Shown in pieces: positions 14,801 to 17,800 of a stretch of DNA of 64,000 nucleotides. The position numbers and the translations under genes are program-made. Within the stretch, counting starts at the first letter, position 1. Each line of letters opens with the position of its first letter. The notes below the pieces were generated by a model, which saw only the letters and a list, made by a program, of their open reading frames with translations, had not been told where the DNA came from and did no database searches. The stretch is from NCBI GenBank assembly GCA_963693365.1, contig CAVNZM010000001.1, forward strand, positions 13,502,418-13,566,417, written 5' to 3'. The stretch is from Amoebidium appalachense (taxonomy: Eukaryota > Protista > Ichthyosporea).

Positions 14801-17800
14801 AGTGGGTGGGTGGGTTGACGAGGAAGGTGTGTGTGTGTGTGTGTGTGTGTGTGTGGAGGGTAGGTGGGTGGATGAGTGTGAGTGTGGGTGCGGGTGTTAA
14901 TGTGTGTGTGTGTGTGTGTGTTTGTGTGTGTGTTGTGTGTGTGTGTGTGTGTGTGTGTGTGTGTGTGTGTGTGTGATTGAGTGCCTGCGTGGAGGTTCCT
15001 AGAGCCACCGTGTGAGATGAGAGGGGGAAAAGCAGAAAGAGAAAGGGGGGGGGGGGGATGTTAGCACCAATAGGACGGTAGCTTTAACGGCTTTGATGTC
15101 GAGCTCACTAATATCAGTCAGAGAAACGAGGACAAGCACGAATCTCATTTGGAGACACTGAGGTGGGTCTGCAACAAAAAGCACATTGCATCTGGCAGGA
15201 ATAGGTAGGTCCAGACAAGACAAGTGAACAACTGCAACACACAGACACAATCACAGATACACACCAGACACAGAGGCTCAAGACGCGGACACACACCCAC
15301 AGACGGAGGCACAGGCACAGAAGCACACGCACAAATGCGAACGTGCGCAGCACACACACACACACACACACACACGCGCGCGCGTGCGCGCGCACGCACA
15401 CACACACACAGAGAGAGAGGGAGAGAGAGGGAGGGGGGGGGGGGGGAGGGGGGTTGAATGAGCAACACGGTACGAAGTACGCATACACGGCGAGAAGCAT
15501 GGTGCAGGACACATGCAAAGGCAAACATTCAAGTATGCAACATCAGCCATGTGCACAGTATGCGTCATAAGCAGAGCCCATCCTCAGGGAGGACCCAAGT
15601 CATCAATTGCGTCTGAGTTTCGAACCCTTAGCCCGCGTATATACGACGCTCCAACTCAGACAGCAGCATCAACTGAACTTGGGCGGGTCAACCCGTCTTG
15701 ATCAAATACGAGCAGGGTTGCTTATGCAAGCAAGGTGAGCAAAACGGTGAAGGTGTGTGTGCAAACTAATGCAGTGCAGCGAAAAATGTGTATGTGCTTA
15801 CAGATGCACGACACAGAGCAACCATGCCCGGTTGCATGGAAGTAAAGCGGTCTCCACACAGTGGTCTGTCCTGAAAGGACACCTCTGAAAGAAGACTGGG
15901 GGGGTTTGAATGCGGAACACGGTACGAAGTACGCATACACGACGAGAAGCATGGTGCAGGACACATGGAGGAAAGAGAGAGAGAGAGGGAGAGAGCGAGA
16001 GGGAGGGAGGGAGAGGAGGAAAGAGAGGGGGGGGGGGGGGGGGGGGGAGGGCGAGGGAGAGAGCGAGAGGGAGGGAGGGAGAGGAGGAAAGGGGGGGGGG
16101 GGGGGGGGGGGGGAGAGAGAGAGAGAGAGAGAGAGAGAGAGAGAGAGAGAGAGAGAGAGAGAGAGAGAGAGAGAGAGAGAGAGAGAGAGAGAGAGAGAGA
16201 GAGAGAGAGAGAGAGAGAGAGAGAGAGAGAGAGAGAGAGAGAGAGAGAGAGAGAGAGAGAGAGAGAGAGAGAGAGAGAGAGAGAGACCAGACACACACAC
16301 ACACCTCCGTATGCAGGGGGTTCTCTGAAGCGGTCGACTTTCCTGTAGTCATCGATCGTGTGGGCCTCCGGTGACAGACCCCCGTGCACACACAGGAACT
16401 GCACGTGTGTTAGTGTTCGTGTGTGTGCGCGTGCCTGTGCACACATGTGGGCTATATTTGGTGTTTTTCTCGTGTCTGTATCTCTCTCACCCCCCCCCCC
16501 CCCCTTTCTCTCTCTTGTTCTCTCCCTCTCTCTCTCTTTCTCTGCGTGTTTGTATGTGTGTGTGTGTGTGGGGGGGGGGGGGGGGGGGGGAGGGGGGGTT
16601 TGAATGCGGAACACAGTACGAAGTACGCATAGACGATGAGAAGCATGATGCAGGACACATGCAAAGGCAAACATTCAAGTATGCAGCATCAGCCATGCGC
16701 ACAGTATGCGTCATAAGCAGAGCCCATCCTCAGGGAGGGCCCAAGTCATCAATTGCGTCTGAGTTTCGACCCCTTAGCCCGCGTATATACGACGCTCCAA
16801 CTCAGACAGCAGCATCAACTGAACTTGGGTGGGTCAACCCGGGGGGGGGGGAGGGAAGGGGGGGTACGGTGTGGGCACACACACACACCATAAGCCAACA
16901 GACACCCCAACCTCTTAACACTTCTACCCCCCCCCCCCCCCCACACACACACACACACCATTTACCCACCTGGTCGTTAACCACTGCAGCCAATGGCAGG
17001 CAGTCAAAACTCTCCATGACCTGATCATACAGCTCAGCACTGTACTTGTACTCGCACTCGGCCTTAAAGGTGAAATACTCCGTCAGGTGCCTGCACTCGT
17101 GGTTGCCCCTTAAAAGGAACAGCGTGTCCTTGTGCAGCGCCTTTAACGACCAGAGGTAGAGCACACACTCGATGCTGAAGCTCCCCCGGTCGACGTAGTC
17201 TCCCAAAAAGAGGTAGCGCGTGCTGTCGGGCTTGCCCCCCACGTCTGTGTGTGGGAGGGTTGGTTGGCGTATGTGTGGGTTATGGTACGTGCGTGTGGTG
17301 GAGGGAAGAGGGAAGCGGGGGGACACCCGGAGGGATGGGGGGGGGGGGGGGGGGGGGGACGGGTGGAGTGGTTATGTGTGGATTTGTGTGAGCGTGTGTG
17401 TGTGTGGATGTTTGCATGTGTGGACGTGTGTGGACGGGTATGTGTACGTGTGTGTGTGTGTGTGTGTGTGTGTGTGTGTGTGTGTGTGTTGAAAGAGGGG
17501 GGGGGAACGTAGGGAGGGGGCAATTTCACATTAGTTATGCGGTTCGACAACACACAACAGAAACATGCTGCAAGAGACAGTGAAAGGACGCTCCTGTGTG
17601 TGTTTGTGTATGTGTGTGTGTGTGTGTGTGTGTGTGTGTGTGTGTGTGTGTGTGTGTGTGTGTGTGTGTGGAGAAACGGGGGAAGGCAAAGGGTCTTACG
17701 CCCATGCATGCGCCATCGCACATGTGCGCTTTGGTGTGTGTGTTCGTTTGTGTATGTGTGTGTGTGTCTGTGTGTGTCCGTGTCAGAGAGAGAGAGAGTG

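Follow-up and report, generated by a model that had tools for sequence, protein, structure and literature searches.

The closest described systems to the RNA reported here are the type SGC hammerhead ribozymes, in which a block with the cleavage site (S), a block with the GAAA motif (G) and a block with the CUGANGA motif (C) follow each other in a non-circular permutation that was found in metatranscriptomes and shown to cleave (Eckert et al. 2023, PMC10085705). In this type stem II begins no more than one to two bases after CUGANGA. The count of six hammerhead permutations made in the same work presumes an intact CUGANGA block, which was assumed to be uninterruptible; non-circular forms were reported almost only from environmental RNA, and type CSG from only two metagenomic sequences. 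For the hammerheads of Penelope-like retroelements, the proposed role is the release of template RNA of one unit length, which may be circular (Cervera and de la Pena, PMC4209133), and Naiad and most Chlamys elements were reported to be without canonical hammerheads, with eight Naiads marked 'HHR_half_core' and no structure given (Craig et al. 2021, PMC8557442). The RNA compared with these systems is a repeated, ribozyme-like sequence of the ichthyosporean Amoebidium appalachense, encoded on the minus strand of a 64,000-nucleotide stretch of contig CAVNZM010000001.1 (positions 13,502,418 to 13,566,417; the window, in its full length) and represented by the subfamilies V1 (15566..15726), V2 (55546..55700) and V4 (19332..19489). 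With a probability of roughly two in three, it contains a complete hammerhead core in S-G-C order, with the CUGANGA strand predicted to be separated from stem II by an additional four-way junction, and is likely to self-cleave after GUU close to the 3' terminus of a retroelement that is itself likely to be poly-C-targeting and Penelope-like, of the Chlamys/Naiad type. It would then be hammerhead-like, yet outside types I-III and not strictly of type SGC.

Hammerhead core and covarying helices

An outer stem, a hairpin, a second and a third stem and a long-range pseudoknot had been named in the original prediction, and all are present on the minus strand in V1, V2 and V4. They had been assigned to an unrecognised RNA class, with a topology fitting neither the hammerhead nor the hepatitis delta virus (HDV) ribozyme. 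Three features were overlooked, namely the GAAA after the pseudoknot strand, the GUU closing the third stem, and the pairing of GG(A/G) with the (T/C)CC that precedes CUGANGA. Together these identify a full hammerhead core in the non-circular order of Eckert et al. 2023 (PMC10085705), and the notion of an unrecognised class has to be given up. In hammerhead numbering, the third stem ends in G16.2-U16.1-U17 and the 3' strand of the pseudoknot continues into C11.1-GAAA-C15.2; the stretch that follows U17 pairs with the one that precedes CUGANGA (V1, GGAG/CTCC; V2 and V4, GGG/CCC). The pseudoknot corresponds to stem II, the third stem to stem III and the second stem to the interaction helix between stems I and II. 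The circularly permuted order S-C-G of types I-III, with its three-way junction, was not found; the minus strand carries the GUU site, CGAAAC and CUGANGA in the order S-G-C.

Six copies in the window cover all three blocks, of which five combine GUU, CGAAAC and CUGANGA and the sixth, V4, differs only at G12. Taken singly, CUGANGA (C3-A9) is kept in 6/6 of these copies and damaged in two short fragments, GAAA (G12-A15.1) follows C11.1 in 5/6, and an NUH cleavage site, with A15.1-U16.1 closing stem III, is present as GUU in 6/6. Stem II is closed by G10.1-C11.1 and comprises 5-7 base pairs (bp) with an upstream strand, with one mismatch in the V1 copy at 15566..15726. A descriptor for the S-G-C order recovered five loci in the window, all of this repeat family, against 0.013 per dinucleotide-shuffled window (300 shuffles); it was composed after the motif had been seen, the copies are not independent of each other, and it misses V4 because G12 is C there. 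At this V4 position (19388), G makes up more than 99 % of the depth in four public runs (X1, 116,415/116,893; X2, 52,120/52,492; X9, 78/78; X18, 1,079/1,084). In the majority sequence of the public runs, one G-U pair of stem II and one of stem III become A-U. This variation was drawn from four of 20 public runs containing V4, some of which (X1) may share their source with the window. In run X1, 2,463 contigs align to 391 bases of V4, which represents many variants and is not a copy number. Furthermore, window position 19353 (C3) reads U in 45 % of the X18 depth (five contigs) and in less than 1 % in two DNA runs; X18 is RNA only by guess, none of the listed runs being recorded as such, contig depth cannot reveal selection for uncut RNA, and neither the C3-to-U share nor a dip in depth over the 5' hairpin was used as evidence.

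The comparison with Rfam that accompanied the original prediction as a proposal gave no family at threshold for the motif, and none of the 150 matches listed among the 271 in the window overlaps it. Below threshold, the type I family Hammerhead_1 does align V2, with the upstream strand as stem II (14.2 bits against a threshold of 34). Pattern scans likewise recovered no relative, with the 3/3 matches in metagenomes being chance matches in bacterial genes, and 9/9 matches in viral contigs being without the upstream GAAAC and the stems. Judged from its letters, the RNA holds the hammerhead core in reversed S-G-C order and is not a new RNA class.

Comparison of the three subfamilies argues for the fold. 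Double changes were observed in 13/32 pair columns (stem I, 1/3; stem II, 2/5; stem III, 4/9; interaction helix, 3/7; outer stem, 3/8). The remaining ten columns, those of the closing helix and the hairpin, are invariant between subfamilies, and 1/126 cells is unpaired. The outer stem forms 8/8 pairs in V1 and V4 and 7/8 in V2, the interaction helix 7/7 pairs in V1 and V2 and, in V4, 5+2 pairs flanking a one-base bulge, and the third stem is 9-12 bp long. The long-range pseudoknot and the hairpin CTCGTCT...AGACGGG are both present as described, but in the V1 copy at 15566..15726 the former, a helix of 5-7 bp, has a C-U mismatch and the latter reads CTCGTAT, with one A-G mismatch. Non-canonical pairs had been given as G-U only; among the pairs of the four helices counted, 92 are Watson-Crick and five G-U, but two are of other types. 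All 12 letters of the 3' strands that are changed in V4 relative to V1 remain paired, a result reached by 12/200,000 shuffles, while in V2 7/8 changed letters remain paired, a weak result that 9,601/200,000 shuffles reach. When the strands were slid as a control, the pairs fell from 15/15 to 3-8/15 in stem II and from 27/27 to 9-13/27 in stem III. Nested-fold z-scores are modest (-2.53, -1.68 and -2.23). The covariation figures lean towards structure, with helix registers set by hand and one representative per subfamily, that of V1 being the best-paired copy (29437..29714) with the outer stem taken from the copy at 15566..15726. Structure could be compared among three subfamilies only, and covariation in stem I refers to window copies only. 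Pairs were counted by coordinates, since MAFFT alignment displaces V4 by one base at G12. This sequence evidence supports the description of the motif as a retroelement RNA that is conserved and strand-specific, contains a pseudoknot and is probably catalytic.

Stem II partner strand and the predicted split of block C

Block C does not appear to run without interruption into a stem II one to two nucleotides (nt) after CUGANGA, and the strand that covaries with the 3' strand of stem II (GACCC, GACCTA and, as the majority form, GACTC) sits upstream of block S, where it is followed by one base and then by the interaction-helix strand. In 5' to 3' order, the sequence comprises an upstream section (outer stem, CCC, hairpin, stem II strand, interaction strand), block S (stem III', GUU, stem I), block G (stem II', GAAA, stem III) and a 3' section (interaction strand, stem I', CUGANGA, U, GGG, outer stem). 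After A9 the chain thus passes through U-GGG, which pairs with the 5' CCC, into the outer stem, while the 5' CCC is followed by UG, the 7-bp hairpin, one or two bases and G10.1. In the V1 copy at 15566..15726, the 5' half of the inserted domain (15692..15726) includes the outer stem (15726-15719), the closing CCC (15717-15715) and the hairpin (15712-15692). It is followed, within 15677..15689, by the 5' strand of stem II (15689-15685, with G10.1 at 15689), one spacer base and the interaction strand (15683-15677). Block S (15649..15662) includes the 3' strand of stem III, U16.1 (15654), U17 (15653) and the 5' strand of stem I (GGAG), and block G (15610..15626) the 3' strand of stem II, the GAAA of G12-A15.1 (15621-15618) and the 5' strand of stem III. 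The 3' section, within 15566..15600, includes the 3' strands of the interaction helix (15600-15594) and stem I (15591-15588), CUGAGGA (15587-15581), U, the closing GGG (15579-15577) and the outer stem (15573-15566). By analogy, the cut is predicted between 15653 and 15652 in this copy, with the corresponding positions between 55629 and 55628 in V2 and between 19418 and 19417 in V4.

In the structure proposed for this order, the core, closing helix, hairpin and stem II form a predicted four-way junction, and the CUGANGA block appears to be split after A9. From A9 the strand would lead by way of U to the closing helix of three pairs (GGG/CCC) and would come back to G10.1 via the hairpin, the core thereby stacking on stem II as in any hammerhead. 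An extra nucleotide between A9 and G10.1 has reportedly been described in a viroid hammerhead. The two modules resemble a duplicated C block (CCCUG...UG-G(A/G)C(U/C)C), a look that would fit an origin from tandem repeats.

Type SGC, including HRIMA-1 and its variants (PMC10085705), shares with the window RNA the S-G-C order, the full core, the U after A9, the pseudoknotted stems and an interaction helix beside stems I and II, here of 7 bp. As read from the oligonucleotides given for type SGC-2, one base separates stem II from the interaction helix there as well. In contrast to type SGC, the 5' strand of stem II and the interaction strand are here upstream of block S, and block C appears to open after A9, with closure provided by a helix of 3 bp together with the hairpin and the outer stem. 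The RNA is about 155-160 nt long, against at most 104 nt, and is a genomic repeat of a eukaryote, whereas the type SGC RNAs come from metatranscriptomes. Types CSG and GCS (PMC10085705) have the same reversed cyclic order of blocks, of which the window RNA represents a further circular opening; those types open between blocks, whereas the window RNA opens inside block C. Relative to Eckert et al. 2023, what appears to be new is that the 5' strand of stem II precedes the cut site, together with the apparent split in block C.

Carrier element, predicted cleavage and rival explanations

BLAST analysis with V1, V2 and V4 as queries distinguished eighteen fragments of the repeat family in the 64 kb window, fourteen of which share a terminus just before a C-run. 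Truncation at the 5' end affects nearly all of the eighteen, and there is one partial tandem, in which a single, pLTR-like 3'-end fragment (15900..15967, minus strand) directly adjoins the upstream side of the longest V1 copy (15454..15905, minus strand, with a CATTCAA end followed by a C-run). The motif is positioned 167-201 nt before the element 3' end. The 5' part of V1 is unlike that of V2 and V4, and V1 may be non-autonomous. About 100 nt upstream of the motif, V2 (55785..55810, minus strand) and V4 (19570..19599, minus strand) carry a bulged hairpin GGGAGC...AGCCC, matched by eye and with weak fold z-scores (-0.71 and -1.70). It may represent a reverse transcriptase recognition signal. 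Chlamys elements target (C)n and form partial tandems (PMC8557442), and the (C)n bias, 5' truncation, partial tandems, ends of AA plus a C-run and a bulged GGGAGC hairpin in the 3' untranslated region are shared with the window family. Six Chlamydomonas Chlamys records were viewed out of 49, picked for their (C)n bias and with no chance control; 5/6 consensus ends read AA plus a C-run, and 5/6 carry the bulged hairpin. The window differs in that no Chlamys open reading frame (ORF) was found in it, and in its host, which is not a green alga. The canonical Penelope hammerheads and retrozymes (PMC4209133; bioRxiv 10.64898/2026.07.22.740005) likewise have their core within the terminal repeat of a retroelement truncated at its 5' end, although those are of type I, often minimal and dimeric, whereas the window RNA has a long stem III and the reversed order. 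The carrier is likely to be a Penelope-like element.

Among the Naiads, the 3' ends of 7 of 54 records in the supplement of Craig et al. (PMC8557442) were read by eye rather than computed. Naiad_Ovul and the record preceding it show the same split wiring in other letters. Both have an upstream stem II (GACACC/GGTGTC), an interaction helix, a GUA site and a 6-bp stem I; the closing helix after A9-U is GGA/TCC, against GGG/CCC in the window family, and no more than 2 bp of stem II could be formed by the strand that follows A9. A similar look, with GUU and an imperfect stem II, was noted for the record before Naiad_Adux, while those before Naiad_Hcon, Naiad_Asuum and Naiad_Lpol read as intact type CSG, one of them with GUU, and no core was seen in Naiad_Omin. 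The hairpin loop TGATC of V1 and V2 (15692-15712, minus strand) recurs at the matching place before Naiad_Adux, which may be due to chance. The Naiads differ from the window family in being (TA)n-targeting animal elements with a stem I of 5-6 bp and short linkers between stems I and II. Exact motif look-ups in the same supplement returned no close sequence relative. No description of a split block C, or of a reversed-order hammerhead in a Penelope-like element, was found in the accessible literature, including the accessible parts of the 2026 retrozyme preprint (bioRxiv 10.64898/2026.07.22.740005) and of Perreault 2011 (PMC3088659), and a prior description is possible.

In the proposed mechanism, G12 and G8 would catalyse the predicted cleavage after U17 of the GUU site. 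Hammerhead cleavage yields products with a 2',3'-cyclic phosphate and a 5'-OH. Tandem or read-through transcripts would be cut 167-201 nt before the 3' end, which would free template RNA of one unit length, possibly in circular form, in line with the role suggested for Penelope hammerheads (PMC4209133). A number of observations weigh against this reading. Stem I comprises 3-4 bp within G/C runs and has one double change, and the slid control does not discriminate there (8/9 pairs, against 9/9 in register). The linker between stems I and II is 18-22 nt long. The published descriptor of type SGC (PMC10085705) gives 4-7 bp for stem I and 0-8 nt for this linker, and the window RNA falls outside both ranges. 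In the hairpin and the CCC/GGG closing helix, 0/10 columns change between subfamilies, which leaves them with no covariation signal. None of the eighteen fragments starts at the predicted cut (0/18), and the V4 contigs of the public runs have loose ends with no pile-up at this position among those listed. GUU is also a slower cleavage site than GUC. With regard to the carrier, no ORF with GIY-YIG and Penelope-like reverse transcriptase domains was found next to any window copy, searches with the 59-amino-acid end of an ORF upstream of V2 recovered no homologue, no Pfam hit and only atlas scores of 0.82, and the six Chlamydomonas Chlamys records showed no hammerhead core within their final ~600 nt.

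A further adverse observation concerns GGCUC, which lies two bases after A9 and also pairs with the 3' strand of stem II, over 4-6 bp that include 2-3 G-U pairs. The RNA could accordingly be an intact type SGC hammerhead, with this downstream strand forming stem II and the upstream strand serving as a decoy, or as a switch keeping the RNA inactive until strand exchange. Pairing by the downstream strand extends over 4 bp in V2 and 6 bp in the other two subfamilies, GGGCUC does not vary among the three, and the V4 duplex is as stable as that with the upstream partner (-7.1 against -5.8 or -6.4 kcal/mol); in the V1 copy at 15566..15726, 7 bp are formed one base after A9. However, the need for 2-3 G-U pairs, the loss of the fifth pair in V2, a change for which the upstream strand makes up by going from C-G to U-A, the detachment of the interaction helix from stem II that would result, and the mere 2 bp in Naiad_Ovul render this arrangement improbable. 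Somewhat better odds, though still poor, can be given to a hammerhead-derived fold that no longer cleaves, or does so only with protein, and is kept as a recognition or priming signal for the reverse transcriptase. The short stem I, the GUU site and the lack of truncation ends at the cut would agree with such a role, as would the poor cleavage in vitro of metazoan Penelope hammerheads, for which other functions were left open (PMC4209133). Yet all catalytic letters are kept in three subfamilies with diverged stems, GUU is found in two Naiad records also, and cleavage in vitro does occur in the SGC and CSG forms, which share this core (PMC10085705).

A ribozyme or RNA class that is new and has no relation to the hammerhead, or else an HDV-like fold, would accommodate the extra helices and the failure of any Rfam family to reach threshold, but with every hammerhead core letter and all three stems present in type SGC geometry it is very improbable. 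HDV-like ribozymes are characterised by a conserved catalytic C in J4/2 and a P3/L3 hairpin. The echo of HDV J4/2 noted in the original prediction does not extend beyond V1, the only subfamily with this C (GGCTAA, against GGTGAA in V2 and GGTTAAA in V4), and the HDV-like candidate was rejected, with no P3/L3 and no Rfam HDV match found. A DNA hairpin of the Helitron type was also rejected on the basis of the 5' truncation of the copies, their fixed 3' end and the retention of the ribozyme core letters.

Beyond the reading preferred here, that of an S-G-C core predicted to be split and likely to cut itself, a wider proposal can be put forward tentatively, with the balance slightly against it. 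An active hammerhead may have had its catalytic strand interrupted between A9 and G10.1 and restored through a four-way junction. This would add a natural permutation to the six considered possible; it would be ancestral to the Naiad and Chlamys clade of Penelope-like elements and present from unicellular holozoans to cephalopods, where it would cut and circularise the element RNA. If true, the existence of a split form that covaries, in a genomic repeat of high copy number, would overturn the assumption of an uninterruptible block and provide a site in the core for the insertion of whole RNA domains. It would also explain the Naiad and Chlamys elements scored as being without hammerheads, and the role of Penelope ribozymes would become directly testable with a 160-nt transcript.

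Repeat copies and other features of the window

The window is eukaryotic, with abundant C-runs and microsatellites. Exon pieces of a calcineurin A gene were distinguished on the minus strand, one of which has its top identity (85 %, among 120 matches listed) in the ichthyosporean Sphaeroforma arctica. The introns of this gene house four of the repeat copies, namely the V1 copy at 15566..15726, a 5'-truncated V1 copy (16584..16841, minus strand) with intact S-G-C core, stem II and interaction helix but without the closing helix and hairpin, a 5'-truncated V2 copy (19002..19190, minus strand) without the upstream stem II strand, and the V4 copy, in which G12 is C. All four core-bearing copies in these sense introns (15566-19489) are damaged under the split model, by a stem II mismatch, two truncations and the loss of G12. 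This would fit selection against cutting, although four copies are no proof. Elsewhere in the window, the 5'-truncated V1 copy at 29437..29714 (minus strand) has the core, closing helix and hairpin intact and is without the outer stem, the V2 copy at 55546..55700 is complete, and V3 (769..863, minus strand), a diverged 5'-truncated fragment, has kept CGAAAC and has a damaged AUGAGGA. A GTAC-TTC-GTAC hairpin near the 3' end is common to the V1 and V2 tails (15470-15490 and 55478-55492, minus strand), and ORF pieces upstream of the complete V2 copy (55942-56115 and 57205-57505, minus strand) are possibly spliced exons.

Fragments of other non-long terminal repeat elements occur at 23412-23975 (minus strand) and 60245-60850 (plus strand), with an RVT_1 match and an RNase H match below the cut-off. 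An intronless frame of 708 codons (35046-37172, minus strand) combines epidermal growth factor repeats with a tyrosinase domain in an otherwise intron-rich genome. A tRNA-Leu-like gene (Rfam, 58 bits) is followed directly by a 360-codon open frame without a Pfam match (38087-39214, plus strand). At 43707-50584 (plus strand), DUF6729 and a 3'-5' exonuclease domain occur in ORFs that are interrupted and probably belong to a single transposon-like gene. Finally, a short element resembling a miniature inverted-repeat transposable element, with inverted ends and internal GGCACGA repeats, is located at about 59335-59505.

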